64,000 nucleotides of DNA from Haliotis cracherodii (Eukaryota), in contig NW_027266286.1 of assembly GCF_022045235.1 (NCBI RefSeq), positions 1,255,856-1,319,855 of the forward strand. Direction: 5' to 3'. Position numbers and translations under genes: made by a program. The notes beneath the pieces are model-generated. The model searched no databases, was not told the DNA's origin, and worked only from the letters and a program-made list of their open reading frames with translations. Position 1 is the stretch's first letter. Every line of letters begins with the position of its first letter. Of the stretch, positions 833 through 63,370 are shown piece by piece.

Positions 833-844
833 CTGGACTCTTAC

Positions 845-8827: not shown

Positions 8828-8858
<31 letters not shown>

Positions 8859-16400: not shown

Positions 16401-16744
16401 TCACTGGATTGTCTGGTAAAGACACGATTATTTACAGACCGCAGTCATAAAGCTGGATTATTGCTGAGAGCGGCGTTAAACAACAAACAAACGAACAAGA
16501 ATGAGGCTTTGAATGACTATAACATGACTCAAGGCACAACCAGGGATTAACCTTTCAGCTTCCACACAGGTTCATTAATCAAAAACATGATGCAGATTCT
16601 AAAAACATCAAAAACCACAATTATCACCAATTTAGAAACATATGCTTTTCAATGAATAATTCTACTTCAATGTTAAACTGAGTTCAGTGTCAGTGTTGGG
16701 AGTCCGAGACGTGATGGAGCCATGCCATGTGGGCAGTAGACTGG

Positions 16745-20880: not shown

Positions 20881-22429
20881 AATTAATGCCATTGTTTGTG
20901 TGTCATCACTAACTGCCAGACATGATTCAATACACAAACAAACAAAGAAGCAGCACCTCCAATTTGCCTTTTTTAAGGACTTATGTTCATCTTTTGAAAA
21001 AAATCAATCAACCGGGTAATACTTTCCAAATAGGAACCTAAGGAACATAATTAGGGCGAACCGGGATTTGAACCCACAATCAGAGGTTTCTGGTGTGCCC
21101 AAGGGACACAACTCTACTCAGCAAATCGCGGCGCCTTAGACAACTGGGCCACCGTGCCCCCCATTCAGTCAAAGAGAATGTACAGCATTAATGCCCTGTT
21201 CTGTAGGCCCTGGGTTTTAGGACTGCCATGCCTGAGATAGTCATGGAACCTCCACAGGCAAACACTTTTCCGTTAACGTGTGATAAACTGTTTTACTTTC
21301 TGACATTCTTAACGCAAAATGCCCATGTATTGCTTTTAAACCTTGTTTAACGGTGAATATTGATGAAACTTTAGAATTAAATCCAGGGAAGGATGTAGAT
21401 CATAATAAAAAAATGTGTTTTATGATTTTCAACACTGGCCATTATACAGGGAACACCTTAGGTCACAGCATGAATCTCTTGAGAGTATATTTGTCTATTT
21501 GTTTTTAAACACCACACTCAGCGACATTCCATAAACAGTGTTGTGTAAAAATCTTGAATTACTAGAAAAATCATGATAGGAGCAAAATATCATTACCGTG
21601 CTTTGCCAAAGGAAACGATGACTCTTCCTGGAAAGAAAATCAGTAATTATGGAAACATTCAATTTTCTCTTAACTTACAATTGAATCTCAGATTCTAAGT
21701 GGCTGAGACCCATTCTATTAGTTTCAATGTACCCCGCTAACATGTAAGGTATATTTCTTAAGTTCCCCGCTCGAATTACTAAACTGCTGACATAACATTT
21801 GCAACATGCCAACTGCTATTCCGTATCTTGAATTAATGATGTAAGACGAAATTTCTCAAAAGCAGTATGACTGTTCTGTTCTGTTTGTTATTTAACGCCC
21901 TACTTAGCAATATTCCAGCTATATGATGGCGGTCTGTAAATAATCGAGTCTGGACCAGACAATCCAGTGATTGACATCATAAGCATCAATCCACATAATT
22001 GGGTTACAAACAAGTCAGCTAGCCTGACCTCCCGATCCTGTCAGTCGCCTCTTACGACAAGCATAGTCGCCTCTTACGACAAGCATGGGTTGCTGAAGAC
22101 CTATTCATGCCCGGATCTTCACGGGTCAGTATAACTGTAAGAAAATATAACAACTGTAAAAGAGGCTTGATTGAGTGAGTTTGAATGGGCAGTGATGAAC
22201 GAAGATGGGGGGACTCTGAATTATTTTGTACTGTCTTCCATAAATAATAACTGAGAACATATAAACCTCAACAGGTCAAGTGAAAATACTGCAGAACGAG
22301 GACAAAATATTATCTGCTTGTCCTGCAGGGCACGTACGGTTTAAGACATTCTAAGAGCCCTGGTGTTACTGTTAGAAACATTTCACCAGGAATAAGGGAC
22401 CAATCTCTTGTCCTCCATATCATGTGATA

Positions 22430-23045
22430 CAGGTTTCCTACACAGAGTTGTCCCAAACAAACAACATGTAACCAGCCTGGATGGCTAGGTTCCCGACACA
22501 GAGTTGTCCCAAACAAACAACATGTAACCAGCCTGGATGGCTAGGTTCCCGACACAGAGTTGTCCCAAACAAACAACATGTAACCAGCCTGGATGGCTAG
22601 GTTCCCGACACAGAGTTGTCCCAAACAAACAACATGTAACCAGCCTGGATGGCTAGATTCCCGACACAGAGTTGTCCCAAACAAACAACATGTAACCAGC
22701 CTGGATGGCTAGGTTCCCGACACAGAGTTGTCCCAAACAAACAACATGTAACCAGCCTGGATGGCTAGGTTCCCGACACAGAGTTGTCCCAAACAAACAA
22801 CATGTAACCAGCCTGGATGGCTAGGTTCCCGACACAGAGTTGTCCCAAACAAACAACATGTAACCAGCCTGGATGGCTAGGTTCCCGACACAGAGTTGTC
22901 ACAAACAAACAACATGTAACCAGCCTGGATGGCTAGGTTCCCGACACAGAGTTGTCCCAAACAAACAACATGTAACCAGCCTGGATGGCTAGGTTCCCGA
23001 CACAGAGTTGTCACAAACAAACAACATGTAACCAGCCTGGATGGC
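22430..23045. repeat. 58-bp minisatellite, about 10.5 units (ggttcccgacacagagttgtcccaaacaaacaacatgtaaccagcctggatggcta).
   Basis: Direct periodicity. Confidence 0.9.
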
Positions 23046-23189
23046 TAGGTTTCAACTCCATCAGATTCAAGGCAAAGCTATTCTTTCAAAGTGACGTCTG
23101 GGTACAGATCACCACCATTGCCTGTTCTTTCTGTTGTTTAATCTCCGCTGGATAACCATGTCCAAGTCAGTGATTGGTTGCGGTTCTTG

Positions 23190-23520
23190 CATCAGGACCG
23201 AGGACGTCACATTCAAGATTGTCGCATCCAAGATATATAGCGACGTGTGCATGCATGTGTGCCTCACTGCTTGTACTAGTCCGGACTGATGCTGATTTTA
23301 TAGTGCTAGCTCACTGAGGTACCATGCCGCAGTTTAACATCAAAACCCCACTCATAAACAGTATACTGACTCCGAGCCGATCAGTCCTTGTTTTAGCCCC
23401 TTTATGACGATCACCAGACAGGGTAACAGCAAGTACCATTTTTTAGTGTGACATCTTTTGGTATGACGCGGCCGGCAATCGAACCCTGGACCTTCTGCTA
23501 TCCACTAGACCACGGAGGTG
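23190..23520 (-). mobile_element. Repeat family E copy, ending in a truncated tRNA-like tail (..GTGGTCTAGTGGATAGCAGAAGGTCCAGGGTTCGATTGCCGG on minus).
   Basis: About 85 percent similar to 37850-38110. tRNA D-arm and T-arm motifs are present but the anticodon arm is missing. Confidence 0.6.
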
Positions 23521-30350: not shown

Positions 30351-30423
30351 GGAGGTGACAGGAGAACTGTGCAGCTCCCTTCCCCTATGGGTATATAACA
30401 TAGTAACACACACATCTACCTAC

Positions 30424-30594
30424 CATGGTGCAGTTCGGCACCAGTCCATACACAACTTGACGTGAGCCGTTGAACAGAGCTGTGATCTGCCGTGGTGCTT
30501 GTGGCAATGTTGCTGCATCGTTGTCAAACTGTTGCCACTCAACTGCCACGGAGGTCAGCCCCGGTTGGGAGGCCTTACTGATCTGAGACTTCAC
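30424..30594 (-). CDS. PARP4: PARP4-like exon 22 (VKSQISKASQPGLTSVAVEWQQFDNDAATLPQAPRQITALFNGSRQVVYGLVPNCTM).
   Basis: Acceptor cccctgaacag|GTG, donor ATG|gtaggt. Human has IEDQMTRLCSPSCHSVSVKWQQLNPDVPEALQAPAQVPSLFLNDRLLVYGFIPHCTQ. Confidence 0.85.
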
Positions 30595-32159
30595 CTGTTC
30601 AGGGGAGGCTTCAGTTTATTCTTTCAGAAAAATAATGTTTTCTACATTTTTTGCTTTCACATTTATTAAATACACAAATAGGGTGAACATTAAATGAAAA
30701 TATTGTTTGAGATAATGTACTGTTTTAGTCACCTCTAACTAAACGGGAGCCACTGAGGTGGATGGCTGAGAATATAATCACTGATAAATTCTGCCTGGAC
30801 AAACAGGATGTTGTCATCACAGGTTGTATATACAGTCAAGTCTTGTTAATCCGACACTCGTTAATCAGACAATCAGCTTTATCCGACACTAATGATGGGA
30901 ACTGATTAAATCAGAGCTATTTAGACCTGCTAATCCGACAGTCTTGCAACATTAGCCACAAAGAAGCAGCTTTCTTGAGCTTTGCGGTACCAATTTCAAA
31001 TTGGCGACTTCCATTCCAGACTTTGCTTTTTAAAGTATTTTGAATCAGTCCTACAGTCCATAACAGTTTTGTGTTAAGCTTCAGAGGTTGCATGATCAGA
31101 AAACATACTCTGCTCGCAATGTAATATAACAATATGCATATTTCATTTTTTTATTACGTTTTTGTTTCATTATCTATTGTGTAGTTGTCTGATTATCAAC
31201 CACGAACATTGATACTACTTAATTTTGTTTATCTGACATACTCGTTAATCCAACATAATCATATGCAACCAACCATGTCGGATTAACGGGACTTGACTGT
31301 ATGTTATTTTCTCTCGTATTTCTGTAAGTATGCTATGTTTCTAAACAGGTCGTTCTGTTTCGTTTCTGTGTGAAAACAGTTCGCACACACACTGCTTAAC
31401 TTCGCGGATACATATCTAAAAGCATGAAAAAAGCATGAATATGCGCCACGTGTCGACCACACTGTGTCGTTGTAATTTCAGTTTTGCTTGAGAGATAGGA
31501 TAGGCAACATCTTTCACCACTCTTGTCATTTTGTAATCGCTATTGTAATAGAAATTTGGGAATTAAGAAAAGTTTGTAAATGTGAATTAGAGTACCATAG
31601 TAATTGTCGTTGGTAATTGTTGCTTTAAACCAAAATAAAACTTGTGTAAATGATTTAGAGTTCTTTGCCTGCCTATTGCGCTGGTACTGTTTCTGCTGAC
31701 CACTGCCACTGATGCATGACCATCAATGGCCCATCGTCATGTGCACAGTGCACAGGTCACAAATCAGGTGAAGCTAGGCAATGTCGGTCGTGGAGAGTCC
31801 TTGGATGGGTGACCACGTGTCGGCTCCTGCCAGTTTCTCGGGCTTTGGTCCTGTCCCCCACTGAAGTACAAGTAACAAATGTGGCGTCTCCTTGGGCAAG
31901 TGACTTTGTTCGAAATGTGACTCTGTTCACCCAGCAGGGAATGGATACCATGTAGGATGAGATGGCAATGTGGGTGTTAACTTTCTAGCGCCTAACAGAC
32001 AGGTTGGGTTGTATACTCCCCAGGGAGCTGAGAATGATTCTTGAGTGCACACTGATCCAGTGACCAGGGTAATAATGGCACTTTGAACATGCCCCTGAGT
32101 GGTGTGGAAATATGGGCAAATATGAATAGTCTATTATTATTATTATGATTAAGGCCTAC

Positions 32160-32259
32160 CTTCCTCTCCCACTTGGACTTGGCTTTCCGGTCAAAGAACT
32201 CGAAGGCTCCTCCTCCAACTCTTGCAATGGCTCGCAGGAGGTGCATGTTGGCAGTGGAA
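32160..32259 (-). CDS. PARP4: PARP4-like exon 21, VWA end (STANMHLLRAIARVGGGAFEFFDRKAKSKWERK).
   Basis: Acceptor tgtttctgtag|T completes Ser codon, donor AAG|gtaggc. Human has STANRHVLRILSQCGAGVFEYFNAKSKHSWRKQ. Confidence 0.85.
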
Positions 32260-32964
32260 CTACAGAAACATAGGGAATAGTACAGGTTTTCTTTGTTTAC
32301 TTGTTGTTTTACGCCGCATTCAGCAATATTCCAGTTATATGACAGCGGTCTGTAATTAATCGAGTCTGGACCAGACAATCCAGTGATTGACATCATGAGC
32401 ATCGATCCACGAAATTGGGATACCAATGACCTGCATCAACCAAGATAGTGAGCCTGGCCACCCGATCCCAATAGTGGCCTCTTATGACAAGCATAGTTGC
32501 CTTTTACAGCAAGAATGGTTGCTGGGGACGTATTCTACCTCGGTTCCCTGACTAAATGATCCAATCTCAGAGATACAAGAAAAACCAGCAACCCTACGGA
32601 CAAAGATTGTTCGTGACATGTGTACAGCAACAAGTCCCAAGTAACTGTCGTATCTCCTCAGGGATAAAATGTAGCATTTTTTCATGATTCCATCCCCCCA
32701 CCCCTAAAAAAAGACCAGTCCTTAAATAATAGAACAAAATGGAACTGTGTCATTTTTTCATTGCCACCCCCACCCACACTCCAAATAGTTGTGATAATTA
32801 ATTTTTGGAGACCCCCATTTTGTGTCATTTTTTCCTCACCCCTTCTATCCTCCCTGCCCCACCACACCCCACCCCACCCTACCCCACCCCACCCCACCCC
32901 ACCCTATAATAAATTACCAGTCCCTTATTACGGATGAAGTAACTGCAGTTCTCTGTCTCTGTAC

Positions 32965-33152
32965 CTGACACCGAAGGTGAAGACTCGAGTGTGAGCAGCA
33001 TTGTTGAGGATGGCGTTGAGCACACTGTCCTCGTTGTTGATGTGTCCATCGCTGATGATGAAGATGTTGCGGATTGCCGAGGTGGAAGCGAGGAGGTGGT
33101 AGGAGTGGAGGGGTCTAAACACCTCTGTGTTGCCCATGTCTGCAAAGGCCGT
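32965..33152 (-). CDS. PARP4: PARP4-like exon 20, VWA core (TAFADMGNTEVFRPLHSYHLLASTSAIRNIFIISDGHINNEDSVLNAILNNAAHTRVFTFGV).
   Basis: Acceptor ttgttgtctag|ACG, donor TCAG|gtacag (phase 2). Human has TMGNTDFWKTLRYLSLLYPARGSRNILLVSDGHLQDESLTLQLVKRSRPHTRLFACGIG. Confidence 0.85.
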
Positions 33153-33943
33153 CTAGACAACAATGGTGGATGTAAGTCAAACTAAACATGTCAAGCGAAT
33201 CCTCACCCCAGTGAATGGAGGACTAACTGAACCCTAAGTGTTATTCAACCACAGAGCTTGATCATTGAAATTGGCCACAAAATATCACATGCCCTGCCAT
33301 TTCCAAGATGGATCTGTGTGCTCCCCCACTCGGAAAAAAAATCCTTCTGTTTTTAAATCCACTTACTTGACCCATAAATATTCAAGTCAATACCAAGTTC
33401 TGCAAACAAATTTCTCGATCTATCCTTCCCACAAATCCTTCCATTCAATGTTATATGTGAGGTTTATTATATTAAGTTTATAACAATTGATCGAACTGTA
33501 CATGATTGAAGTTCCTCCCCTGATGGCAAAACATCTATGGCCAGTCAAATATTAATAGTAGACATTGATGCCCATCTCGACTATCCAAAGTTTGTGTGGA
33601 CCAACAAATTCTGATAGTGAACATACCTGGTCCTAATTTATGTAGTACATTTTTGACCCGGCTCAAACCCAGGTACTTTTCTACTTCCCCAGACTACTGA
33701 AACTACAAACATAGGGACTCATATGCCTTTACAATAAAGCTAAGCACAGGTGCATTACGGGAAGACAAAGGTAACATCTTGTTTTCCAGAAACAACGGTA
33801 GTTCCATTATTGCAATAAATACCTCACATTAGTGTTTATAATTGACAGAAGTAAAAATTCCCTCCGTTGTCTCCCATTGTAAGTATCCAAGAGCTGTCAT
33901 CCCAAATAGCGCCAAGGTTGCCTGGCAACCAGACTCAACCTAC

Positions 33944-34017
33944 CTTAAGGAACTTCTCCACAGCCTGGATGCTGGTCTTTGTGTTTGGCTGGCTGGTTGG
34001 GAAGAGTTCCTGGTGGC
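33944..34017 (-). CDS. PARP4: PARP4-like exon 19, VWA (GHQELFPTSQPNTKTSIQAVEKFLK).
   Basis: Acceptor ttgtcgtgcag|GC continues phase (G+GC=Gly), donor AAG|gtaggt. Human has GYKELFSYPKHITSNTMAAEFIMSA. Confidence 0.75.
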
Positions 34018-34454
34018 CTGCACGACAACATACGACACAAGATGCCATATAGTAGGAACATAAATTGTAGAATTCAAAACTTGCTGCTTATTCCTAATCT
34101 ATGATATCTACAATACAGAAACACAGAAGCGTGATAATCTCTTCATCAGATAGCATCATTATTAAAAGCATGAAGGATCAAGGCCTGGAACTGTGTAGGA
34201 ATACAATGCCTGAGTGAACTGCCCATTCATCATATAGTGCCAAATGACTGGCAGCCATGTTTGTTGACACACATCAGGATTCCAAGGTCTACACAACCTG
34301 GTATCACATGGCTGCAGGCTGCCGCCTGGAAGTACTTCCTGTCGGGGCACCTTATTTGCATATGTATTGGACAGTGAAACAAAGAGCACTGGATTGGGTT
34401 ATTGCATCAAGACAAAACAGGGATCCTTGCAATGAAGCAGAACCAGTGGGAGGC

Positions 34455-35335
34455 AAGATTCAAGGGTGTATTTAGAGGGTATTCAGTGGTCTATCTATAG
34501 GGTATTCTGGGGTCTATTTAGAGGGTTTTCTGGGGTCTATTTAGGTGGTATTCGGGGGTCTATTTAGACGGTATTCGGGGTCTATGTAAAGAGTATCTGG
34601 GGGTCTATTTAGAAGGTATTTAGGGGTCTTTTTAGAGGGTATTCGGGGGGTCTATGTAGACGTATTCGGGGGTCTATGTAGAGGGTATTTGGGTGTCTAT
34701 TTAGAGGGTATTTGGGCGTCTATGTAGAGGGTATTCGGGGTCTATTTAGGGGGTATTTGGGGGTCTATGTAGATGTATTCGTGGAACTATTCAGATGGTA
34801 TTCGGGTGTCTATTTAGGGGGTATTCGTGGGTCTATTTAGATGGTATTCGGGGGTCTATTTAGGGGGTATTCAGTGGTCTATTTAGATGGTATTTGAGGG
34901 TCTATTTAGATGGTATTTGTGGGTCTATTAGATGGTATTCGAGGGTCTATTTAGAGGGTATTCGTGGGTCTATGCAGAGGGTATTTGTGGGGCTATGCAG
35001 AGGGTATTCGGGGGTCTATGAAGAGGTATTTGGGGGTCTATTTAGAAATTATTTGGGGGTCCATCCAGAGATCCAAAGAGTATTCCGGGGTCTATTTAGA
35101 AGGTATTTAGGGTCTATGAAGAGGGTATTTGGAGATCTATGAAGAAGGTAGTTGGGGGTCTATGAAGAGGGTAGTTGGAGGTCTATGAAGAGGGTAGTTG
35201 GGGGTCTATGAAGAGGATATTCAAGGTCTATGTAGAGGGTATTCAAGGTCTATGTAGAGGATATTCAAGGTCTATGTAGAGGGTATTCAAGGTCTATGTA
35301 GAGGGTATTCAAGGTCGATGTAGAGGATATTCAGG
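34455..35335. repeat. About 30-bp degenerate minisatellite, about 29 units (gtctatttagagggtattcgggg).
   Basis: Direct periodicity. Confidence 0.9.
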
Positions 35336-35980
35336 ACTCAGCAGTGTGATGCACAGGACACAATTAAATTTGCATTTGGTACGTAGATACAACATATAAA
35401 ATACATGGTGCTATCATCTAAAACTGGTTCCCACAGGAGATATCGCTCGGGTGAGATCAAGATATCGCTGCAATGAATTTGCATCACAATGCTTTGCAGT
35501 CCATTGTGATGTCATTGGTTACCATGATGACACAATCAAATGCCATCACTGCTACTGAAGCTGTTAACAGTACTTTTACACTTAAGACACTACTTTTTAC
35601 TGTCTACAAACTGAAAAGGTTGGAAGAATATTGTTGGATGATAAATAAAATCTCATCCTTGTGTCTTTTGATATCAAATATATCAACACTCGTTGATAAA
35701 AGTGGAAAAACTCATCGGCAAGCTTCAGAGTTTTAAACTTTTATCGACTCATGTAGATGTAGAAAACAGAAGTCACTTGGGTGAGATTCTCCATTTAAGT
35801 GGTATTCCAGATTCGAAAGCAGTGTCCGAAAAAACTGCCTGCCTGCCTGCCCATGGCCGGTAACTTTTCTGTCGGGCTGCATGAAATTTTCCTCCATCAA
35901 CTGTCTGGCAGATAATTTTAAGACTACGAATGCTGAGGGCAGAAACAGTCATGTCAAAACACTGTGTGGACGACACAGAC

Positions 35981-36167
35981 CTGTCCCGAAGCAGAGGACG
36001 TTGAAGGTGGAGTGTGGCGGCAGGCTGTGCACTGACATCATCAGCAGCTTCTTGGCGTCCAGCACTGCGTCACCTGACATGGAGTTGGAGAGGTCAAGGA
36101 TGAACACAATCTCCACGTCATCTTCCTCGTCAGCCTCGAACTCGGGGTAAAATGTCAGCATGCAGGC
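35981..36167 (-). CDS. PARP4: PARP4-like exon 18, VWA domain start (ACMLTFYPEFEADEEDDVEIVFILDLSNSMSGDAVLDAKKLLMMSVHSLPPHSTFNVLCFGT).
   Basis: Acceptor tgttctag|GCC, donor ACAG|gtctgt (phase 1). MIDAS-like DxSxS motif. Human has ACMLVFQPDLDVDLPDLASESEVIICLDCSSSMEGVTFLQAKQIALHALSLVGEKQKVNIIQFGTG. Confidence 0.85.
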
Positions 36168-36174
36168 CTAGAAC

Positions 36175-36625
36175 ACAGAGTGAAGACAGGAGTGGGCAGA
36201 GAGAACAACCCTGTATATGTGTGTCAATACAATAAACGTTGGGGACACTGTTTACAAGGGAGGATGGTGGTCGAAGGAGCCCTGACTTGCAACACAGAGT
36301 GAAGACAGGAGTGGGCAGAGAGAACAACCCTGTATATGTGTGTCAATACAATAAACGTTGGGGACACTGCTCACAAGGGAGTGTGGTGGTCGAAGGAGCC
36401 TTGACTTGCAACACAGAGTGAAGACAGAGTGGGCAGAGAGAACAACCCTGTATATGTGTGTCAATACAATAAACGTTGGGGACACTGTTTACAAGGGAGG
36501 GTGGTGGTTGAAGGAGCCTTGACTTGCAACACAGAGTGAAGACAGAGTGGGCAGAGAGAACAACCCTGTATATGTTGGCCAATACAATAAACGTTTAGGG
36601 ACACTGCTCACAAGGGAGGGTGGTG
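36175..36625. repeat. About 118-bp tandem repeat, about 3.8 units, immediately adjacent to the VWA exon acceptor (36167).
   Basis: Direct periodicity. ORFs at 36130-36671 are artefacts. Confidence 0.85.
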
Positions 36626-36889
36626 GTCGAAGGAGCCTTGACTTGCTTGCAAGGTTGCATACCTTAATCACGCCAGGATCCGCTGATCCTTGTTTTGAAT
36701 ACCAGATTCACCCCATTTATGAACCTTGGTCTGCGAGTGCTACAGCTGTGTTCGTGGATTTCACCTAAGTAATATATGTCTACACTATGCAGCTATTGGC
36801 TTTCCTCCCACATAAAGCTAACACAAATGATATTAATGAAACAAAGAATTAAGCCTGCACAAAACATAACCTAGGGAAATATGATCCGA

Positions 36890-37425
36890 GAATTATCCCA
36901 CTCTAACTGAATGTCTCTCCACCGACAAACCAGAGCATTGTTCTACCTGATGCATGTCTCTCCGACAACAATCCAGAGCATTGTTCCTACCTGATGCATG
37001 TCTCTCCGACAACAACCCAGAGCATTGTTCCTACCTGATGCATGTCTCTCCGACCACAAACCAGAGCATTGTTCCTACCTGATGCATGTCTCTCCGACCA
37101 CAAACCAGAGCATTGTTCCTACCTGATGCATGTCTCTCCGACCACAATCCAGAGCATTGTTCCTACTTGATGCATGTCTCTCCGACCACAAACCAGAGCA
37201 TTGTTCCTACCTGATGCATGTCTCTCCGACCACAATCCAGAGCATTGTTCCTACTTGATGCATGTCTCTCCGAACACAAACCAGAGCACTGTTCCTACCT
37301 GATGCATGTCTCTCCACCGACAAACCAGAGCATTGTTCCTACCTGATGCATGTCTCTCCGCCCACAATCCAGAGCATTGTTCCTACCTGGTGCATGTCTC
37401 TCTCTGGATGTCTCTCCACCCACAT
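36890..37425. repeat. 60-bp minisatellite, about 9 units (ctctccgaccacaaaccagagcattgttcctacctgatgcatgt). The first unit provides the exon 17 donor.
   Basis: Direct periodicity. Confidence 0.9.
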
Positions 37426-37524
37426 GCGGGGCACATGTATCTCAGCCAAGCCAATCAGAAGCTGGAAGCCATCTTGAATTGTCTGCCCTTGACGCATCTG
37501 CACAACAGCCTTGGCAGCAGTCCT
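37387..37524 (-). CDS. PARP4: PARP4-like exon 17 (RTAAKAVVQMRQGQTIQDGFQLLIGLAEIHVPRMWVERHPERDMHQ).
   Basis: Acceptor ttctttcag|AGG. The donor CAG|gtagga is supplied by the first unit of the 60-bp intronic minisatellite. Human has RTDCKAVISTMEGSSLDSSGFSLHIGLSAAYLPRMWVEKHPE. Confidence 0.8.
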
Positions 37525-37849
37525 CTGAAAGAACCAGAGCCGATATTGGCGGCCAGCAGCATCATGGTAGCGCTACATCACGCCGGTGTTTCACCTTCAT
37601 CAACAATGTGCATTCTGAGTCAGACAATTATTTTACATTGTTCATTTTAACACCCATAATGTCAATTCTGAGGAGAAGGCTTTTATTAATGAGTCCTATG
37701 ATGGTGCTCAACATCATATTCATCCTTCACCTTGCTAATGACAGACCAACTAACAGATGGACAGATGACTTTTGCATATAAGCTCCCTTAGACCTTGGTG
37801 ATTAAACCAACAACATCAGGTGAGGTGAAATGGGGTTTGACTTCACGTT

Positions 37850-38110
37850 CAAGATTACAGCACTTTTTATAGCGACGTGCATGCATGTGTGTGTGTGGCT
37901 GCTTGTACTAGTCCAAACAGATGCAGTTTTTTTAGTGCTAGCCAACTGAGATACCATGCTGCAGTTTAACATGAATACCCCACTAAGACACAGTATACTG
38001 ACTCAGAGCCGACCAGCCCCTTAGTGCCGAGCGCCAGGCAGGTTAATAACAAGTACCATCTGTTAATGTTTTTGGTATGACACGGCCATGAATCGAACCC
38101 TGGTGTACCG
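37850..38110 (-). mobile_element. Repeat family E copy. Its tRNA-like tail is continuous with the 39-bp minisatellite at 38110-39095.
   Basis: Similar to 23190-23520. The tail motif gacgctctaccactagaccatggaggcggtctcc is reiterated about 25 times downstream. Confidence 0.6.
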
Positions 38111-39095
38111 CTCTCAGGGCAGACGCTCTACCACTAGACCATGGAGGCGGTCTCCGAGTGGATGCTCTACCATTAGAACATGGAGGCGGTCTCCAGGCGG
38201 ACGCTCTATCACTAGACTATGGAGGCGGTCTCCAAGTGGTCGCTCTACCACTAGACTATGGAGGCGGTCTCCGGGCGGACGCTCTATCTCTAGACCATGG
38301 AGGTGGTCTCTGAATGGACGCTCTCCCACTTGACCATAGTGGCAGTCTCCGAGCAGACGCTCTACCACTAGACCATAGAGGCCGTCTCCGAGCAGACGTT
38401 CTACCACTAGACCATGGAGGCGGTCTCTGAATGGACGCTCTACCACTAGACCATGGAGGCGGTCTCCGAGCGAACTCTCTACAACTACAACATGGAGGCG
38501 GTGTCTGAATGGACGCTCTACCACTAGACCATGGAGGCGGTCTCCGAGCGAACGCTCTACAACTACAACATGAAGGCGGTGTCTGAATGGATGCTCTACC
38601 ACTAGAACAGGAAGGCGGTCTCCGAGTGGATGCTCTTCCACTAGACCATGGAGGCGGTCTCTGAGCGGACGCTCTACCACTAGACCATACAGGCGGTCTC
38701 CGAGTGGACGCCCTACCACTAGACCATGGAGGCGGCCTCTTAGCCGACGCTCTACCACTAGACGATGGAGGCGGGCTCAGAGCGGACGCTCTACCACTAG
38801 ACCTTAGAGGCGGTCTCCAAGTGGATGTTCTACCACTAGACCATGGAGGCGGTCTCGGAGCGGACGCTCTACCACTAGAAGATGGAGGCGGTCTCCGAGC
38901 AGACGCTCTACCACTAGACGATGGAGGCGGTCTCCGAGCAGACGCTCTACCACTAGACGATGGAGGCGGTCTCCGAGCAGACGCTCTACCACTAGACGAT
39001 GGAGGCGGTCTCCGAGCAGACGCTCTACCACTAGACGATGGAGGCGGTCTCCGAGCAGACGCTCTACCACTAGACCACGGAGGCGGTAACCAACA
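38110..39095. repeat. 39-bp minisatellite, about 25 units (gacgctctaccactagaccatggaggcggtctccgagcg), derived from the tRNA-like D-arm/acceptor segment of the adjacent family E element.
   Basis: The unit contains TCTACCACTAGACCATGGAGG, the reverse complement of the tRNA motif CCTCCATGGTCTAGTGGTAGA. ORF-track ORFs at 38114-39193 come from this repeat. Confidence 0.8.
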
Positions 39096-39306
39096 ACATC
39101 GGTACATGGTATAATATGTACCATCAATCTTAGGACAGCTTTATTTTGAACAGCACTGTAGCTCACCTTAGCATATATATATTCTACAGCCAAACTGTTC
39201 AGATATTTGTCAATTTCAATAGTCTGATATTAGATATTGAAACTTACCTTTATGGATAAATTTGTTCATTAGAAATAAATCAAAGATTCAAGAGAATGCT
39301 TCTTAC

Positions 39307-39420
39307 CTTGATTTTGACCTTATGTGAAGGACACTGTATTGAACGAATGTCAAAGGGCATCTCCACAGCAACCTGCAGAGTAGTGTCCCCTGATTCCACC
39401 TTGTGAGTGTCCAAGTCAGT
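39307..39420 (-). CDS. PARP4: PARP4-like exon 16 (TDLDTHKVESGDTTLQVAVEMPFDIRSIQCPSHKVKIK).
   Basis: Acceptor atggttacag|ACT, donor AAG|gtaaga. Human has SFSLTMSIEMPYVIEFIFSDTHELKQK. Confidence 0.75.
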
Positions 39421-39713
39421 CTGTAACCATTAGCAACAGCTGCCAGATGCTCAACATAACCATACAACACATTGAGCAAACAGATAGTATTTTAACAATA
39501 CTTAAAAGTGAGCGAGTGAGTGAGTTAATATTTAACATCAAACAATACTTAAAAGAAACAATAATCCACATTATAAAAACCAATCAGTATTACATAATCA
39601 AAAACATTATGAGAAAGAACAAATAAAAAGAAAATTCCCTATTTCCACTATAAATGGGAATTATTTCACAAGCACATAATTTCACTGTCAGAATTTTTCA
39701 GATCCATAGATAC

Positions 39714-39878
39714 CTGAGTGATTTCATCAGCAGCAGAGTCTTGTTTCCATGGCGCCACGCTGCCTGGCAACCGGAAGCTGATAAGTTCTGCTTCAACCTG
39801 TAGCTCAGCTACGTAAGTAATCTTGATGAGTACATGTGCACTAGGAGGAAGGTTGCCCACACTCACTGTGAACACATC
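39714..39878 (-). CDS. PARP4: PARP4-like exon 15, VIT domain part 2 (DVFTVSVGNLPPSAHVLIKITYVAELQVEAELISFRLPGSVAPWKQDSAADEITQ).
   Basis: Acceptor catatttcag|GAT, donor CAG|gtatct. Human has DVFTVSVGNLPPKAKVLIKITYITEL...ATVAPWQQDKAL. Confidence 0.9.
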
Positions 39879-39959
39879 CTGAAATATGAAACATACTTCT
39901 AGAAACTGCTTTCTTCTGACTTCAGTAATATCAATATGCTTAACAACCTTTCAAGAAGC

Positions 39960-40200
39960 CATACAATACAGAATCTCTTAATCCCTGTCAATCATTTAGG
40001 CCCATGACCTTCACTGATGACCTTCACCTCTAACTTACATCCCTGTCCATCAGATAAGCCCCATGACCTTCACTGATGACCTTCACCTCTAACTTATATC
40101 CCTGTCCATCAGATAGCCCATGACCTTCACTGATGACCTTCACCTCTAACTTACCGGCGTCTCCTCATCCCTGTCCATCAAATAGGCCCCATGACCTTCA
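39960..40200. repeat. 60-bp tandem repeat, about 4 units, overlapping the exon 14 donor region.
   Basis: Direct periodicity. Confidence 0.8.
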
Positions 40201-40379
40201 CTGACAGCCTTCTTGTACTCTTTGTGAGCCTGCTCCTTCTCTTTGACCTCGCCCACGATGTGCTTGTCATTGATGAAGGCTTCGAACCCACACACAGCCG
40301 CCATGTCGTCCAGGGGAAACACATACTTGGCCTCCACAGCAGTGTCGCTGTTGTTGAAATACTCTTGGAGCACTATCAC
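40155..40379 (-). CDS. PARP4: PARP4-like exon 14, VIT domain part 1 (VIVLQEYFNNSDTAVEAKYVFPLDDMAAVCGFEAFINDKHIVGEVKEKEQAHKEYKKAVSEGHGAYLMDRDEETP).
   Basis: Donor CCG|gtaagt. Very strong match to human VIVFQTYTNKSHVPIEAKYIFPLDDKAAVCGFEAFINGKHIVGEIKEKEEAQQEYLEAVTQGHGAYLM. The 5' boundary is ambiguous by 1 nt (ttttctgcag g GTG); see the finding at 40370-41025. Confidence 0.8.
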
Positions 40380-41018
40380 CTGCAGAAAAGTTCCACTACA
40401 CGTCAGTTGGAGTCACACAGTCCTTTATAAAGATCTTACAACACTCGGTAATAAGGAAAATTGGGCCTAAAAAGTATAGGTATACCATTTTTGGTTGTGC
40501 CTTGTTTTACAAGACAATTACACTCATTAATCTCCGCATATTAAAAGAATCCCACAGAAACAGGAATACAAACATCATTGTATTTCATTGTGTCCAGTGA
40601 TACTTATGTGGAAGATTGACAAGCAATGTTCCAGTTCCTCATCTCCAGTTGATTCACCTGAAGCAATATCATGTTGTCTTTGACTGAGCATTATAAGTAC
40701 CAGCATTTCTTCCTGAAACCCAAGCATGGGGGGTGTGCATCACAATAAAATATTGTAAACTACAATGTCCTTATAAAAGAAATTCATGCTGTATTCTGGA
40801 ATATCAAGCAAATGTCATCTTGCCAATGACACAAGTTCTACATTCATGCAGTGTTCAGACACATGGTGATTGATGTAGGTATTTACAGTATGGGATGGTA
40901 GTCGTCCTGTATTCGTGGGACTTATTAGACACATGGTGATTGATGTAGGTATTTACAGTATGGGATGGTAGTCTTCCTGTAGTCGTGGGACTTATTATAA
41001 ACAATCTGTGTACCCCAC

Positions 41019-41152
41019 CTGTGCAGCCAGATCCACCAGTTTGGCGCGGATGTGAACCCCTACCAGCTCCACGGCCATCTTGTTGCCCTCGGACACCAGA
41101 CCTGCCTCCACCTTCGACAGGGGGTCCTCCACACCCAGCACGTCAGACAAAT
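41019..41152 (-). CDS. PARP4: PARP4-like exon 13, linker before VIT (DLSDVLGVEDPLSKVEAGLVSEGNKMAVELVGVHIRAKLVDLAAQ).
   Basis: Acceptor ttcctgccacag|AT, phase continuous with exon 12 (G+AT=D). Donor CAG|gtgggg. Human has GLQDASGNLVPLEDVHIKGRIIDTVAQ. Confidence 0.7.
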
Positions 41153-41159
41153 CTGTGGC

Positions 41160-42425
41160 AGGAATAGGGAATATAGGGAACACGGTGAATATAGGGAACA
41201 CAGTGAATATAGGGAACATGGTGAATATAGGGAACACAGTGAATATAGGGAACACAGTGAATATAGGGAACACAGTGAATATAGGGAACATGGTGAATAT
41301 AGGGAACATGGTGAATATAGGGAACACAGTGAATATAGGGAACACAGTGAATATAGGGAACACAGTGAATATAGGGAACACGGTGAATATAGGGAACATG
41401 GTGAATATAGGGAACACAGTGAATATAGGGAACACAGTGAATATAGGGAACACAGTGAATATAGGGAACATGGTGAATATAGGGAACACAGTGAATATAG
41501 GGAACACGGTGAATATAGGGAACACAGTGAATATAGGGAACACGGTGAATATAGGGAACATGGTGAATATAGGGAACACAGTGAATATAGGGAACACAGT
41601 GAATATAGGGAACACGGTGAATATAGGGAACACGGTGAATATAGGGAACATGGTGAATATAGGGAACATGGTGAATATAGGGAACACGGTGAATATAGGG
41701 AACACAGTGAATATAGGGAACATGGTGAATATAGGGAACATGGTGAATATAGGGAACACAGTGAATATAGGGAACACACTTAATATAGGGAACACAGTGA
41801 ATATAGGGAACATGGTGAATATAGGGAACATGGTGAATATAGGGAACACAGTTAATATAGGGAACACAGTGAATATAGGTAACACAGTGAATATAGGGAA
41901 CACGGTGAATATAGGGAACACGGTGAATATAGGGAACACACAGTGAATATAGGGAACACAGTGAATATAGAGAACACGGTGAATATAGGGAACACAGTGA
42001 ATATAGGGAACACAGTGAATATAGGGAACACAGTGAATATAGGGAACACAGTGAATATAGGGAACACAGTTAATATAGGGAACACAGTGAATATAGGGAA
42101 AAAAGTGAATATAGGGAACACAGTGAATATAGGGAACATGGTGAATATAGGGAACACAGTTAATATAGGGAACACAGTGAATATAGGGAACACAGTGAAT
42201 ATAGGGAACACAGTGAATATAGGGAACACAGTGAATATAGGGAACATGGTGAATATAGGGAACATGGTGAATATAGGGAACACAGTGAATATAGGGAACA
42301 TGGTGAATATAGGGAACATGGTGAATATAGGGAACACAGTGAATATAGGGAACATGGTGAATATAGGGAACACACAGTGAATATAGGGAACACAGTGAAT
42401 ATAGGGAACACAGTGAATATAGAAC
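41160..42425. repeat. 21-bp minisatellite, about 60 units (gtgaatatagggaacacagtg), intronic between exons 12 and 13.
   Basis: Direct periodicity. Five large ORF-track ORFs (40995-42518 and others) are artefacts of it. Confidence 0.95.
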
Positions 42426-42479
42426 AATAAGAACTGATGAGATGAGGAGCATATTGATGGACAGCTGTAGAAACTGGTA

Positions 42480-42765
42480 GAGTGAGTGAGTGAGTGAGTG
42501 AGTTGGGTTTAATGCCACTTTAACAGATTTCCAGTTATATCACAGCGTGGGAGTATTGATGCAGGTCTGGGACGTTTACCACTTCGATGAAACCCATGAG
42601 CACAGATATGGTGTTGACAAACCTAGAAACATAATTGGGGCGAACCGGAATTTGAACCCACAATCAAAGGTTTCTGGCATGCCCAAGGGACGCAACTCTG
42701 CACAGCGAATTACGGTGCCTTCGACAACTGTGCCACCCGTGCCCCCTGCGACTGGTAGCGGCCCC
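42480..42765 (-). mobile_element. SINE family B copy, intronic, about 130 bp below PARP4-like exon 12.
   Basis: Sequence identity to the other family B copies. Confidence 0.75.
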
Positions 42766-42894
42766 ATGAGAACACAGATTGTACACAGTAACAACATACA
42801 GTTGTAGCCCTCCATACAATGACCAAAAGACAAAGGTATCTGAGTGGGTTCACAGGTGTTAGGGATAACTGAGACGAGGACCTGACATACATAC

Positions 42895-43051
42895 CCAAGT
42901 TGTCCTGTATCATGTCTGCCAGCATCGTCTGCTCCATGTCCTGCTGGCTGTCTGCCAGGCTCACGTCTCGAACCTGGTCCCCCTCCACGCTGAACTCCAC
43001 CAGGTATCTCAGACGCTGCTGGTTGACGCTGTACACAGCATACTCATCAGC
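42895..43051 (-). CDS. PARP4: PARP4-like exon 12, end of catalytic domain (ADEYAVYSVNQQRLRYLVEFSVEGDQVRDVSLADSQQDMEQTMLADMIQDNL).
   Basis: Acceptor tttactgccag|GCT, donor TTGG|gtatgt. Human has DDEFVVYKTNQVKMKYIIKFSMPGDQIKDFHPSDHTELEE. Confidence 0.85.
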
Positions 43052-43800
43052 CTGGCAGTAAAACAGTCAAACATCAGTCGACACGGTCAAACATCAGCCT
43101 GACACAGTCAAACATCAGTCAACACAGTCAAACATAGTCAAAAATCAGTTGACACAGCCAAACATACTCAAAAATCTGTTGACACTGTCAAACATCAGCC
43201 TGGTTCAGTCAAACATCAGCCTGGAAGTCAAACATAGTCAAACATCAGCCTGGAAGCCAGCCAGTCGACATTATCAAACATCAGTCTGTCTCAGTCAAAC
43301 ATCAGTCTGGCTCAGTCAAACATGGTCAAACATCAGCCTGGCTCAGTCAAACATAGTCAAACATCTGCAGGGCTAAGTCAAACATCAGCCTGGAAGTCAA
43401 ACGCAGTCAAACATCAGTCAACACAGTCAAACATCAGTCTAACTCAGTCAAATGCAGTTAAACATCAGTCTGGCTTAGTTAAACGCAGTCAAACATCAGT
43501 CTGGCTCAGTCAAACGCAGTCAAACATCAGTCTGACTCATTCAAACATCTACATGGCTCAGTTAAACATCAGCCTGGCTCAGTAAAATGCAGTCAAACAT
43601 CAATCTGGCTTAGTCAAACATAATCAAACATCTGCAAAGTTCAGTCAAACATCAGCCTGGAAGTCAAAAGCAGTCAAACGTCAGTCGACACAGTCAAACA
43701 TCAGCCTGGCTCATTCACACGTAGTCAAACATCATCCAGATACACTCATCAACAGTCAAACAGTCAAAGAGCAGCCTGACACACTCATCAACAGTCAAAC
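43040..43800. repeat. Degenerate about 21-bp repeat (tcaaacatcagcctggctcag), about 35 units.
   Basis: Direct periodicity. Confidence 0.8.
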
Positions 43801-43833
43801 AGCAGCCTGACACAAAGACTGTCAACTTCCTAC

Positions 43834-44017
43834 CCTAAACTCTGACGGAGTGTTCGGAGTGTCCTTGACACCATGGACACTGTCATACCCCTCAGGGGCA
43901 CACTTGATGGTCTTGTCATGGTGGTACAGCTCCTTACACCTGCCCAGAGCAACGTCAGCCACCAGCATCAGCCTCGTGCCCTTCGTCTTGCTCTCGCGGG
44001 AGTACTGGGCACTGGTA
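43834..44017 (-). CDS. PARP4: PARP4-like exon 11, PARP catalytic domain (TSAQYSRESKTKGTRLMLVADVALGRCKELYHHDKTIKCAPEGYDSVHGVKDTPNTPSEFR).
   Basis: Acceptor ctgttgttgcag|T, donor AGG|gtagga. Human has GTRLLLICDVALGKCMDLHEKDFSLTEAPPGYDSVHGV. Confidence 0.85.
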
Positions 44018-44039
44018 CTGCAACAACAGGGCCAGGTGA

Positions 44040-44585
44040 GCTAACTATATAACATCAACATTTCACCAGGTGAACTATTTAAATAACATCAACATTTCAC
44101 AAGGTGAACTAACTATATAACATCAACATTTCACCAGGTGAGCTAACTATATAACATTAATATTTCACTAAGTAACTGAAATAACATCATCTTGGACATT
44201 TTTCACCAGGTGAACTTACTATAAACATTATCTTGGGCACGTTTCACCAGGTGAGCTAACCATAAAAGGTTATCTTGGGCACATTCAACCAGGTGAGCTA
44301 GCCATAAAAGGTTATCTTGGTCACATTTCACCAGGTTAACTAACCATAAAAGGTAATCTTGGGCACGTTTCACCAGGTGAGCTAACCATAAAAGTAATCT
44401 TGGTCACATTCAACCAGGTGAGCTAACCAAAAAAGGTAATCTTAGACACATTCAACCAGGTGAGCTAACCATAAAAGGTTATCTTAGGCACATTCAACCA
44501 GGTGAGCTAACCATAAAAGGTTATCTTAGGCACATTCAACCAGGTGAGCTAACCATAAAAGGTAATCTTAGGCACACTTCAGGTG
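44040..44585. repeat. About 60-bp minisatellite, about 9 units (..caccaggtgagctaaccataaaaggttatcttgggcaca..).
   Basis: Direct periodicity. Confidence 0.85.
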
Positions 44586-44647
44586 ACCAAACTATATAAC
44601 ATTATGTTGGGCAACAGGGAATCAACAATGTTCTCTCCAGAGCCTAC

Positions 44648-44746
44648 CTTGCAGCGCTGGCAAAGTAGAGTCCGGCTCCCAGCATCCCGGCATCTGACCT
44701 CTGACCCCCATAGTGCTCCACTACCACCTTCGGCAACAACAAACCT
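44648..44746 (-). CDS. PARP4: PARP4-like exon 10, PARP catalytic domain (GLLLPKVVVEHYGGQRSDAGMLGAGLYFASAA).
   Basis: Acceptor gttttcag|A, donor AAG|gtaggc. Human has GLLLPKVVEDRGVQRTDVGNLGSGIYFSDS. Confidence 0.85.
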
Positions 44747-44854
44747 CTGAAAACAGGAACACACTGACAGTTGAACACCACAAACACAATAACACTCAAG
44801 ATAGTGGCAATAGTTATTTGAATAATTCCGTCATTTTACTTCAATAAAACCAAC

Positions 44855-44992
44855 CGTGATAATATTCCCACAAAGTTTTCTGGCTTGGATGCGTGGAACA
44901 GGAGCCGTTTTGGATCAATATCGTGGCGGAAGTTGGTTTCTTCGATGGGGCGTTGCACCTCATACACAGCCTTGACCTCCATCTTGACATCT
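44855..44992 (-). CDS. PARP4: PARP4-like exon 9, PARP catalytic domain (DVKMEVKAVYEVQRPIEETNFRHDIDPKRLLFHASKPENFVGILS).
   Basis: Acceptor ttgtcag|A, donor CG|gttggt (weak GT donor). Canonical PARP motif RLLxHGS..NxxGILSxGL. Confidence 0.75.
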
Positions 44993-45432
44993 CTGACAAA
45001 ACAAGGACATCATTCTCACAAGAACATCGAACTAAAATAACAATCAAATCCTGACAAATACATGCAACAGTTCCATCAACTTTTACTTAGCTCAGAACGA
45101 AACATGCATTTCATGCTAGTAATGAATATTTCCGTGTTTTCAAAGTAAGGTGTGACCCCTGGGAATTCTGGGCCAGATCTGTTCCAATGCCTTCCTACAA
45201 GAGCTGACTTATTAGAGCCGAGAAGTGGGTGGTTACAATGTCTGGCGTGGCTGATTACGTGGATTTCACAGGTAAACATTATGTGGTTTCATATTTGCAG
45301 GTTGTTTTTACTTTTCGAGGCCTGGAAATATTAGAACCAAAAACGTTAGCATAACCTAATGTCAATTGATACTGCATAACCTAATATCAATTGAATCTGT
45401 TAAAATACAAAAGTCATCTGTTATTTTTCACT

Positions 45433-46984: not shown

Positions 46985-47100
46985 GATAGCCTAGTGGTTA
47001 AAGCGTTCTCTCATGACACTGACCCAGGTGAAGCCCATTTCTTGTGTCCCCTGCCGTGATATTGCTGAAATATTGCTAATAGAGGCGTAAAACCATACCA
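46985..47100 (+). mobile_element. SINE family A copy, 5' portion. Ends about 40 bp from the PARP4-like exon 7 donor.
   Basis: Sequence identity to the other family A copies. Confidence 0.7.
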
Positions 47101-50867: not shown

Positions 50868-51040
50868 AAGCGTGAGAGAGTCTGGTTTTACAGCGCTTTT
50901 AGCAATATTCCAGCCATATCACGGTGGGGGACACCAGAAATGGGCTTCACACATTATACCCCTCTGGGGAATCAAACCCGGGACTTCAGCATGATGAGCA
51001 AACGCTTTAACCACCAGACTACCCCATCACCCCAGTGACA
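50868..51040 (-). mobile_element. SINE family A copy.
   Basis: Sequence identity to the other family A copies. Confidence 0.75.
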
Positions 51041-55855: not shown

Positions 55856-56239
55856 CAATTAAATACATTTGGAATTTGAGCAGTCCTATAAAGTTTCTAT
55901 CAAGTCATAAAACAAATTTCATCTCTCTGCTTTAACACATGGTATTATTTTTATCAATCTAGCAGTTACCAATTCCCCTCAGTTTGTAGTGCCAATGTCT
56001 TGACCCAGACTTGCACCATAGAGCCTTGTCCCTCTGTGTTTCCTGCACGACCATGTTTCCCTACTAGAAGCCCTGTACCTACAAGCTGCTTCTGACAAAC
56101 AAGCCAGGTCAGGCAAAGAGGAAATGAATGATCCTTTTCAGACACCAAATAATGAAGTTCACCAGTGCTGCACTGTGCATGAAGAACGAGACAACGGGTG
56201 TCAAACAAACATTCCTTATAGTGTGCCAAGAAACAATGT

Positions 56240-56410
56240 GTGAGTTTGGTTTTACACAGCTTTCAGCAATATTCCAGCATTATTACAGCGGGGGACACCA
56301 GAAATGGGCTTCACACATTGTACCCATGTGGGGAATCGAACCGGGTCTTCGGTGTGACGAGGAACCACATTAACCACTAGGCTACGAGTGAGTGAGTGAG
56401 TGAGCGAGTG
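56240..56410 (-). mobile_element. SINE family A copy with a long (GAGT)n tail.
   Basis: Sequence identity to the other family A copies. Confidence 0.75.
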
Positions 56411-57291
56411 AGTGAGTGAGGTTTTAAATTTGTAACTGACACCTTCTGCAGACTCGGGGTCGAGTATCAGCCTCTGAGTAGGTCCAGACAAATCCATGTA
56501 CACATAAAAAGAAAAGACCTAAATCCTGCTGTGTGACCTGAATGGCACAAGTTCTGCTCCAGTCAGTGTTCACACATATTCCCGAGGAAAGAGAGTTAAC
56601 TGACTATAAAAGTCTAGTTTCCAACCTTGCCAAATTAGGCTGGTATAATGGAGTTACATTTTGGCTGGACTAACGAGTCTATGCATAGTTTAAACAAAAT
56701 TGCCCAACAAAATCCAAATCCGGTTCATAAACTGTCATGCAGTTTTCGGTCGATTGCAGAATTTGCAAAGCATGTGCGTTGTCAACAGATCTTTTCTAAA
56801 TCTTTTCATGTTTTTAATCAAGATGCTCACATGATTTGATGCACTTCGCTATATAAGACTTGTTTTATCACAACATAGATCTTGATTATCGATCAGATCG
56901 TATTGACTGGGCGCCGCCATTTTGTTTGAAGAAAATGCAAGTGTTACGAGAGGTTGAATCTTATTGGTCCATAGGAGAGGCATGGAAGGGACATAACTCG
57001 TAATAGCCACAAGTGGCGCTACGATCGAGTCAAGGAAGTCCAGCCTAGTTCGGCAAGGGTGGAAACTGGACTTTTATAGTCAATTAACTCACTTGCCTCA
57101 GGAAGATGGGTACTTACAGCTGACATGCTTTTAACCATAACAACAGTTCTTCTTTCAGTAACTTGTACAGTGGCGCCAATTTTATTGACAGGTTTTCTAA
57201 AACACTACCATAGTAGTTCACCCTAACCATAATCTGAGATATCACTGTGGTTACTTGGAGAAGAGTCATCCTTCAAAGCTGAGTCCTCATC

Positions 57292-57801
57292 CTAAGTAGT
57301 GAATGCCTTGAGTCCCAGCTCAGTAACGCGAGGTACCTTTAACTCACATTTCAACCTCATGAGTTGAACACCATAGCTCTCCAGGTGGCTCGTGAATGTC
57401 TCTATGATACGATCGTGATCAGCCTTTTCTATTCCTCGTATCAGGATATCATCCAAGTTACACATAACACACTCTTTACCCTGTAAAATCTGGTCCATCG
57501 TCTTTGGGAATATGGCAGGTGCAGTGGGAACTCCATACATCTTTACCTTGTACAATCCACAGCGTGTATTAATGGTAAGGAAGACTTGTGCGTCCGGATC
57601 TAACTCCAGCTGTTGGTTAGCATGTGAAAGGTCCAACTTTGTGAACGCTTCTCTGTAGAATGCTTCTGGAGTAAAGGAAACAACAGCTCCTGTGTCCATG
57701 TCAATTTTGAGTGATTGGTTTTCAAGAAGATATGTAGCTTGGCATGCTTTGGACCCAGCATTTACAGCTGAATATACATAAAATAGGTCAAGGCCATTCA
57801 A
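57292..57801 (-). mobile_element. LTR-retrotransposon (Ty3/gypsy-like) reverse-transcriptase fragment: ..FTKLDLSHANQQLELDPDAQVFLTINTRCGLYKVKMYGVPTAPAIF..CVMCNLDDILIRG..HDRIIETFTSHLESYGVQLMRLKCELKVPRVTELGL.
   Basis: RT motifs FxKLDLxxxYHQ, FGLxNAPAxF, YxDDILI and KCxF. No LTRs or other pol domains detected nearby, so this is a decayed fragment. Confidence 0.7.
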
Positions 57802-62139: not shown

Positions 62140-62285
62140 GTGGGGTCGTGGTTGAAGCGTTCACGTGCCAGGCCAAGGATCCGGGTTCGATTCCCCACAT
62201 GGGTACAATGTGTGAAGCCCATTTTCTGGTGTCCCCTATATTGCTGGAATATTGCTAAAACTAACTCACTCACTCACTAATAAAA
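62140..62285 (+). mobile_element. SINE family A copy, sense on plus with (ACTC)n tail, in ashwin-like intron 1.
   Basis: Sequence identity to the other family A copies. Confidence 0.75.
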
Positions 62286-63224: not shown

Positions 63225-63370
63225 GTTGGTGGGATAGCCTAGTGGTTTAGCATTTGCTTGTTGCGTCGAAGACCCGGGTTCGATTCCCCACATGGGTCCA
63301 ATGTGTGAAGCCCATTTCTGGTGTCCCCAATTATTACTGGAATGTTGCTAAAAGCAGTGTAAAATCATAC
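63225..63370 (+). mobile_element. SINE family A copy, sense on plus, in ashwin-like intron 2.
   Basis: Sequence identity to the other family A copies. Confidence 0.75.

Follow-up and report, generated by a model that had tools for sequence, protein, structure and literature searches.

The window, by which we mean the whole 64-kb stretch of DNA analysed here, carries on its minus strand a PARP4-like gene whose best protein matches are PARP4-like proteins of molluscs (Lottia, Candidula and Saccostrea, at 50-55% identity); the host is probably a mollusc or another lophotrochozoan. The concatenated minus-strand exons of this gene match the PARP catalytic, VIT and VWA domains of Pfam (E=1e-25, 1e-35 and 2e-11, respectively). 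Between the exons at ~39283-39429 and 35952-36167 lies an intron that holds a tRNA-derived SINE, in the same sense as the gene, with a long tandem array at one end. To place this element within its family we relied on a sample of four copies, two of them in the window and two on unrelated metagenome contigs (L001 and L002). The features on which the following paragraphs draw are these:

~30388 to 45009, minus strand: PARP4-like gene, with PARP catalytic exons at ~43825-45009, VIT at 39283-41150 and VWA at 31995-36167

37805 to 37817, no strand assigned: TSD copy on the 3' (tail) side, the 13-mer AACCAACAACATC, adjoining the SINE tail

37818 to 37838, minus strand: SINE 3' tail, AAACCCCATTTCACCTCACCT on the minus strand, a short (CACCT)2 repeat, aligned with AAAACCCCAAATCAACCAACCAACCA in the L002 copy, where the tail is (AACC)n

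37839 to 38077, minus strand: SINE body and 3' region, 77% identical to 23236-23489 and 74% identical to the L002 and L001 copies, and covered by a four-way alignment

38078 to 38112, minus strand: the 3' portion of the tRNA-like head that was not duplicated, tRNA positions ~38-73, with the B-box-like GGTTCGATTCA at 38089-38099, placed by pattern match and by the Rfam tRNA alignment of L002

38113 to 39087, minus strand: tandem array, 25 copies of SINE nt 1-39, defined by TRF, a table of in-phase units and a pairwise difference matrix

38113 to 38151, minus strand: innermost unit, continuous with the remaining SINE and keeping the C at unit position 34 that is found in the L001 and L002 heads

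39049 to 39087, minus strand: outermost unit, adjoining the TSD; alone among the units it reads CCGTGG, with the G at unit position 10 that the other three family copies share

39088 to 39100, no strand assigned: TSD copy on the 5' (head) side, the 13-mer AACCAACAACATC, adjoining nt 1 of the outermost unit

23174 to 23516, minus strand: second family copy, without an array and with a ~15-nt internal deletion in its head, identified by BLAST, the four-copy profile and alignment

The two window copies share 77% identity over 256 bp (23236-23489 versus 37868-38103; BLAST), and the four-copy profile recovers them with E=1e-102 and 2e-99 (nhmmer). When metagenome contigs were scanned with a body motif common to both, two loci emerged, L001 and L002, each with a family member at 74-79% identity. 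The L002 copy is complete (5116-5463, plus orientation) and starts ACCGGCTCCGTGG. The whole Rfam tRNA model aligns to its first ~75 nt, scoring 26.6 bits where the gathering score is 29 (E=0.048 over 11 kb, 5.6e-4 in a local search); its tail is (AACC)n, and it is flanked by a TSD of 12 bp, AGTCACGTGGTC, which is perfect. A tRNA-like part at the 5' end, together with the tail and TSD in L002, gives the family the anatomy of a tRNA-derived SINE. Its members are short (334, 343 and 348 bp), non-coding and dispersed. The three copies whose 5' end falls within the alignment begin ACCG or ACCA after unrelated flanks; a block, AATCTTGAA.GTGA, is conserved ahead of the tail in the family alignment; and the tails are simple repeats, (AACC)n in L002 and (CACCT)2 in the array-bearing copy. 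The heads of the two window copies are called neither by ARAGORN, which returned nothing, nor by Rfam, which gave no tRNA match at gathering thresholds or at E<=10, and these heads are thus degenerate. Literature searches with sequence strings of the family returned no match to a named family.

Since the window copies align to the plus-strand L002 copy in reverse complement, both lie on the minus strand, and the orientation of the element follows the tRNA-like part. An earlier, sequence-only reading of this DNA had derived the array unit from the tRNA-like tail of a SINE, described as a degenerate tRNA 3' half. That the unit comes from the terminal tRNA-like segment was correct, but three lines of evidence identify this segment as the 5' head: firstly, the tRNA covariance-model match lies on the plus strand of L002, which was aligned to the reverse-complemented window copies; secondly, the simple-repeat tails, as well as the TSDs of L002 and of the array-bearing copy, mark the opposite end; thirdly, the units are followed, in the minus-strand direction, by the B-box-like GGTTCGATTCA. 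The segment consists of the acceptor 5' strand, the D-arm, which holds the A box, and the anticodon stem-loop on its 5' side, and is not a 3' half. Within it, CCTCCATGGTCTAGTGGTAGA corresponds to the acceptor 5' strand and D-arm and includes the A-box-like TGGTCTAGTGG, which agrees with the A-box consensus at 10/11 positions; the B-box-like GGTTCGATTCA, further downstream on the minus strand, agrees with its consensus equally well (10/11), and the two boxes measure 51 nt end to end. The array-bearing copy is a minus-strand, tRNA-derived SINE whose 5' head supplied the array.

The boundaries of this copy are unusually legible. Across the 64 kb of the window there are just two occurrences of the 13-mer AACCAACAACATC, at 37805 and 39088, which form a perfect 13-bp TSD that encloses the tail, the body and all 25 units. 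Read along the minus strand, the order is flank GATGTTGTTGGTT, ACCGCCTCCGTGG (nt 1, in the outermost unit), the 25 units, AGCGGTACACCAGGGTTCGATTCATGGCC, the body, the tail AAACCCCATTTCACCTCACCT and GATGTTGTTGGTT once more. Immediately next to the TSD, the outermost unit starts with ACCGCCTCC, and the innermost passes without interruption into SINE nt 40 and onward, through to the tail. Because the TSD encloses element and array together, the array lies inside the retroposed unit and is not a satellite set beside it. The TSD-bounded insertion (37818-39087) is 1270 bp long, of which the 24 extra units make up 936 bp; without them the copy measures 334 bp, close to the L002 copy (348 bp) and to the second window copy (~343 bp). 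The sequence-only reading had begun its feature at 37850, which cuts off the tail of an element whose TSD-bounded extent is 37818-39087, and had let the array follow almost at once; the array begins at 38113.

Its estimate of about 25 tandem copies of a 39-bp unit, on the other hand, agrees with ours. TRF reports a single array at 38122-39087, with period 39, 24.8 copies, 85% matches, 0% indels and a score of 1316, and in the phase of the SINE the interval 38113-39087 resolves into exactly 25 units of 39 bp, all in register; the in-register listing displays a rigid 39-bp period across the array. On the minus strand the unit consensus is ACCGCCTCCATGGTCTAGTGGTAGAGCGTCCGCTCGGAG. The unit contains the motif TCTACCACTAGACCATGGAGG, as had been noticed earlier. 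The A-box-like TGGTCTAGTGG is found in each unit and the B box in none of the 25. The unit equals SINE nt 1-39, of which nt 1-3 form a leader and nt 4-39 correspond to tRNA positions 1-37, as numbered by the Rfam alignment of the L002 copy and carried over through the four-copy family alignment. The internal joint thus separates tRNA positions 37 and 38 of the anticodon loop. Units meet as GAG|ACC, and nt 40 is also an A, so that the duplicated segment is either 1-39 or 2-40 and the microhomology at the joint amounts to 1 nt (A1/A40). Both boundaries of the unit coincide with landmarks of the RNA, one with the 5' terminus of the SINE and the other with the anticodon loop, and this is the sole unusual detail of the array.

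The second window copy had been cited as sharing the same terminal segment while having no array. It is indeed a genuine, array-free copy, ending in ccactagaccacggaggtggt, but what it has in common with the unit is only the first ~21 nt, since ~15 nt matching unit positions ~22-39 are missing; its TSD is at best degenerate. The 3' block of this copy (23200-23220) reads GAATGTGACGTC on the minus strand, and AAGTGACGTC is found on the plus strand at 23078-23100, ~100 bp from its tail. The latter may be a remnant of another element with the same LINE-like 3' block in the opposite orientation.

Two other readings of the array were considered and rejected. A tandem array of genuine tRNA genes would not have units of 39 nt that stop in the anticodon loop and have neither T-arm nor B box, and across the array ARAGORN found no tRNA genes and Rfam no tRNA match. 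A coding function was rejected as well, the 283-aa ORF in the array having no protein match; long ORFs arise here because the 39-bp unit amounts to 13 codons without stops.

The pattern of differences among the units records how the array has turned over. Units 2-5 from the outer end are identical. Units 14 and 16 differ by 2 positions and units 15 and 17 by 1 in the pairwise matrix, indicating a duplicated 78-bp dimer, and units two places apart differ less on average (5.13, lag 2) than immediate neighbours do (5.92, lag 1). Only the outermost of the 25 units has G at position 10 (CCGTGG), the state of the other three family copies, and the C at unit position 34, the state of the L001 and L002 heads, occurs in units 21, 23 and 25, the last of these being the innermost. 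Of 91 differences from the consensus, 39 fall at the 8 CpG positions, and 32 of those 39 are changes of CpG to TpG or CpA. The array has thus gone on duplicating locally while decaying at CpGs. Outside CpGs, divergence from the consensus is ~6.7%, from which we estimate that ~1.7 changes would be expected in the 26 bp of TSD (P about 0.17); a perfect TSD is therefore compatible with diversification in place.

Taken as a whole, the locus is best explained by an ordinary SINE insertion, followed by duplication of nt 1-39 and growth of the array in place, an account that we regard as probably correct. A tRNA-derived SINE of ~334 bp would have been retrotransposed with the help of a LINE into the PARP4-like intron, in the sense of the gene, making the 13-bp TSD. 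Its first 39 nt, the 3-nt leader and tRNA positions 1-37, would then have been duplicated in tandem, and the array would have expanded inside the element to 25 copies by replication slippage, unequal sister-chromatid exchange or both, adding 936 bp to the intron. In support of growth in place, minisatellites evidently form often in this region: 33 arrays with a period of at least 10 occupy 24.5% of the 64-kb window, with units of 18-119 bp and most with 4-80 copies. We infer that the founding duplication, too, was made at the DNA level. The array itself is presumably a neutral by-product, comprising 25 A-box-like motifs but only one B box.

The founding duplication is the uncertain step of this account, against which several observations count. 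Microhomology at the joint is limited to 1 nt, and the flanking direct repeats of 5-20 bp expected under the Haber-Louis slippage model are absent; the duplicated segment starts at the terminal nucleotide of the SINE, as would roughly 1% of 39-bp segments placed at random in a 334-bp element; and the account draws on four family copies and on a head that is itself too degenerate to be recognised by ARAGORN or Rfam. Slippage driven by hairpins is not indicated either, as trimers of the unit fold as single-stranded DNA no more stably than shuffled sequences (z = -0.75 and -0.74). The overall pattern does permit nick-stimulated recombination at the 5' junction of the element, as Ahmed and Liang proposed for human loci.

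These same details raise the alternative that the founding duplication was made during retrotransposition. Here, on reaching the 5' end of the SINE RNA, the LINE reverse transcriptase would have jumped. Its landing site would have been the anticodon-loop region, either in that molecule or in another SINE RNA, or else the 3' end of a '5' half' fragment of 39 nt, yielding at least two copies of nt 1-39 inside one TSD-bounded insertion, with later expansion to 25 at the DNA level. Non-LTR reverse transcriptases, R2 among them, can jump end to end between templates. A jump of this kind would account for an outer unit boundary at the exact SINE 5' terminus and an inner one at tRNA 37/38, within the anticodon loop, and for a joint whose microhomology is a single nt; the G at position 10 of the outermost unit, as against the 24 others, would fit a different template molecule; and partial 5' duplications beside full-length Alus recur in human (PMC3389668). 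Each of these points has its counterweight, however. The match to the landmarks was noticed post hoc at a single locus, and any tandem array seems integral in its own phase; the G and A at position 10 are related by a CpG transition, a change that recurs easily; non-templated nucleotides are not seen at the joints; and Ahmed and Liang ascribed the human cases to recombination at the endonuclease site (PMC3389668). We accordingly consider a reverse transcriptase jump unlikely, albeit worth pursuing: the locus offers a lead on a possible RNA-level origin of duplications at SINE 5' ends, and if the jump were true, template jumping would be a general and unrecognised source of minisatellites from SINE heads, including the partial 5' Alu duplications of human.

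It is considerably less plausible that a master SINE gene had the array, in full or shorter, beforehand and that the whole was retrotransposed, as a member of a multi-A-box subfamily. A retrocopy of such a gene would be surrounded by a TSD, array included, and would begin at unit nt 1, a Pol III start expected relative to the A box, as is seen; runs of at least 4 T, at which Pol III terminates, are absent from the sense strand of both array and body; and the units are fairly diverged while the TSD is perfect. The last point loses its force at ~6.7% non-CpG divergence, where a perfect TSD is unremarkable. Moreover, the outermost A box lies ~950 bp from the sole B box, a spacing far over what TFIIIC tolerates in type 2 promoters; the four identical outer units speak for growth in place; and no second array-bearing copy was found in the window by profile search or in metagenome, viral and prokaryotic sequence by exact-pattern scans. 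The alternative that the sequence-only reading had itself named, an independent 39-bp satellite beside the SINE or inserted next to it, is the least credible of all, since the unit and SINE nt 1-39 are collinear, nt 40 follows without a break on the innermost unit, the outermost unit directly adjoins a perfect 13-bp TSD that surrounds element and array, and the one other place in the window with unit-like sequence is the head of the second family copy. Neither the unit nor the unit junction had an exact match in metagenome, viral and prokaryotic contigs, a weak negative given how little eukaryotic DNA these hold, and the SINE body pattern had no matches in two further viral scans.

Tandem repeats derived from SINEs have been described before, and the locus adds nothing new in kind; 23% of human minisatellites and satellites are derived from transposable elements. 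The nearest relatives are the sSats of squamates, satellites built from parts of SINEs with a long terminal unit that reaches the SINE terminus (Vassetzky et al., 2023; PMC10702118). Like these, the present array repeats part of a tRNA-derived SINE, has one longer terminal unit extending out to the SINE terminus and contains alternating dimeric subvariants, and in both the longer or younger stretches are more homogeneous. The major units of sSats, however, are 67-215 nt long, mostly from box-B, body or LINE-derived regions, and their loci, which number in the hundreds to thousands, show a tendency towards subtelomeric positions, whereas the present unit consists of the 39 nt at the very 5' end, has box A only and sits in an intron, at one locus known from a 64-kb window.

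In human, 136 loci carry a partial 5' Alu beside a full-length Alu, the segment averaging 88.6 bp (Ahmed and Liang, 2012; PMC3389668), and Alu-derived minisatellites have been reported (Jurka and Gentles, 2006, as cited in PMC9659126). In these cases, as here, a SINE seeds a minisatellite that local duplication then expands, but Alu is 7SL-derived and most cases have two units, in contrast to 25 units of 39 bp from a tRNA-like head. Amphibian genomes contain tandem families related to tRNA and Pol III, namely Xenopus satellite 1/OAX, Hy/PolIII, PolIII/TAN and Rana/polIII, which, as reviewed in PMC10702118 and PMC9659126, likewise contain a tRNA-related promoter segment. Their units are ~200-750 bp long, they are highly abundant and their parental SINE is mostly unidentified, whereas here the parent SINE and its TSD are visible at the locus. 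Bivalves, finally, have tandem-like arrays of whole SINEs, with 2-15 units of at least 150 bp (PMC11481361). These too stem from tRNA-derived SINEs and are often intronic, in a probably related host group, but they consist of whole elements instead of a 39-nt fragment. Their authors note that bivalve tandem repeats from SINE fragments are still unscreened (PMC11481361), which makes the present locus an entry into a class of repeat that is unsurveyed in the host group.

What sets the locus apart is a very short, 5'-terminal unit with box A only, combined with intact boundary markers. Parent SINE, TSD, an outermost unit that has the G of the family and young identical units are all displayed at one place, as a record of the birth of a minisatellite from a mobile element. 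In practical terms, the array should be masked as SINE-derived in annotation.

Other arrays and dispersed repeats surround this element. Several introns of the PARP4-like gene are filled with minisatellites, for example at 41169-42422, where 69 copies of an 18-bp unit directly adjoin the VIT exon. Among the ~22 other larger arrays of the window, none has a dispersed homologue within it. The 627-aa ORF at 8172-10055 (minus strand) contains an in-frame 90-bp minisatellite (9042-9648; 6.7 copies, 94% identical) that encodes FG-rich repeats of 30 aa, SFGAVDASKHAEKSSFGSGFGGSTTAATGF, and a protein search found no homologue of this ORF. A reverse transcriptase ORF fragment at 57292-57801 (minus strand; Pfam RVT_1, E=3e-9) could belong to a candidate partner retroelement. 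On the L002 contig, a long hairpin-forming inverted repeat at 6705-6880 matches the plant miRNA model MIR898 with 36 bits against a gathering score of 75, and is probably a MITE-like palindrome and not a miRNA gene.

Two further dispersed families are present in the window, with copies at the following positions:

840 to 1016 (minus strand), 3616 to 3767, 7543 to 7697, 10753 to 10898, 47028 to 47098, 50878 to 51024 (minus strand), 56238 to 56385, 62181 to 62260 and 63228 to 63373: second tRNA-like SINE family

6565 to 6802, 11226 to 11447, 16228 to 16468 (minus strand), 21900 to 22128, 32322 to 32539 and 58522 to 58759: dispersed ~220-bp family with a tandemly duplicated 22-mer, TAGTCGCCTCTTACGACAAGCA

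The second tRNA-like SINE family is the commoner of the two SINE families, with at least nine copies that have the head GGGTAGTCTAGTGGTTAAAGC...GGTTCGATTCCC and the conserved body CCCATTTCTGGTGTCCCCCGCCGTGATAT..GGAATATTGCTAAAAG. An array derived from the head accompanies none of these nine or more copies. One of them (56238-56385) adjoins an ACTC/GAGT tetranucleotide run at 56386-56420, a possible tail, and another (840-1016) lies ~40 bp from a G-rich array at 1-827. In the ~220-bp family, two copies have unrelated minisatellites 250-300 bp downstream, at 11692-12208 (52 bp x 10) and 22431-23051 (56 bp x 11); this family may represent the end of a mobile element that carries arrays, or the association may be a coincidence in an array-rich region.
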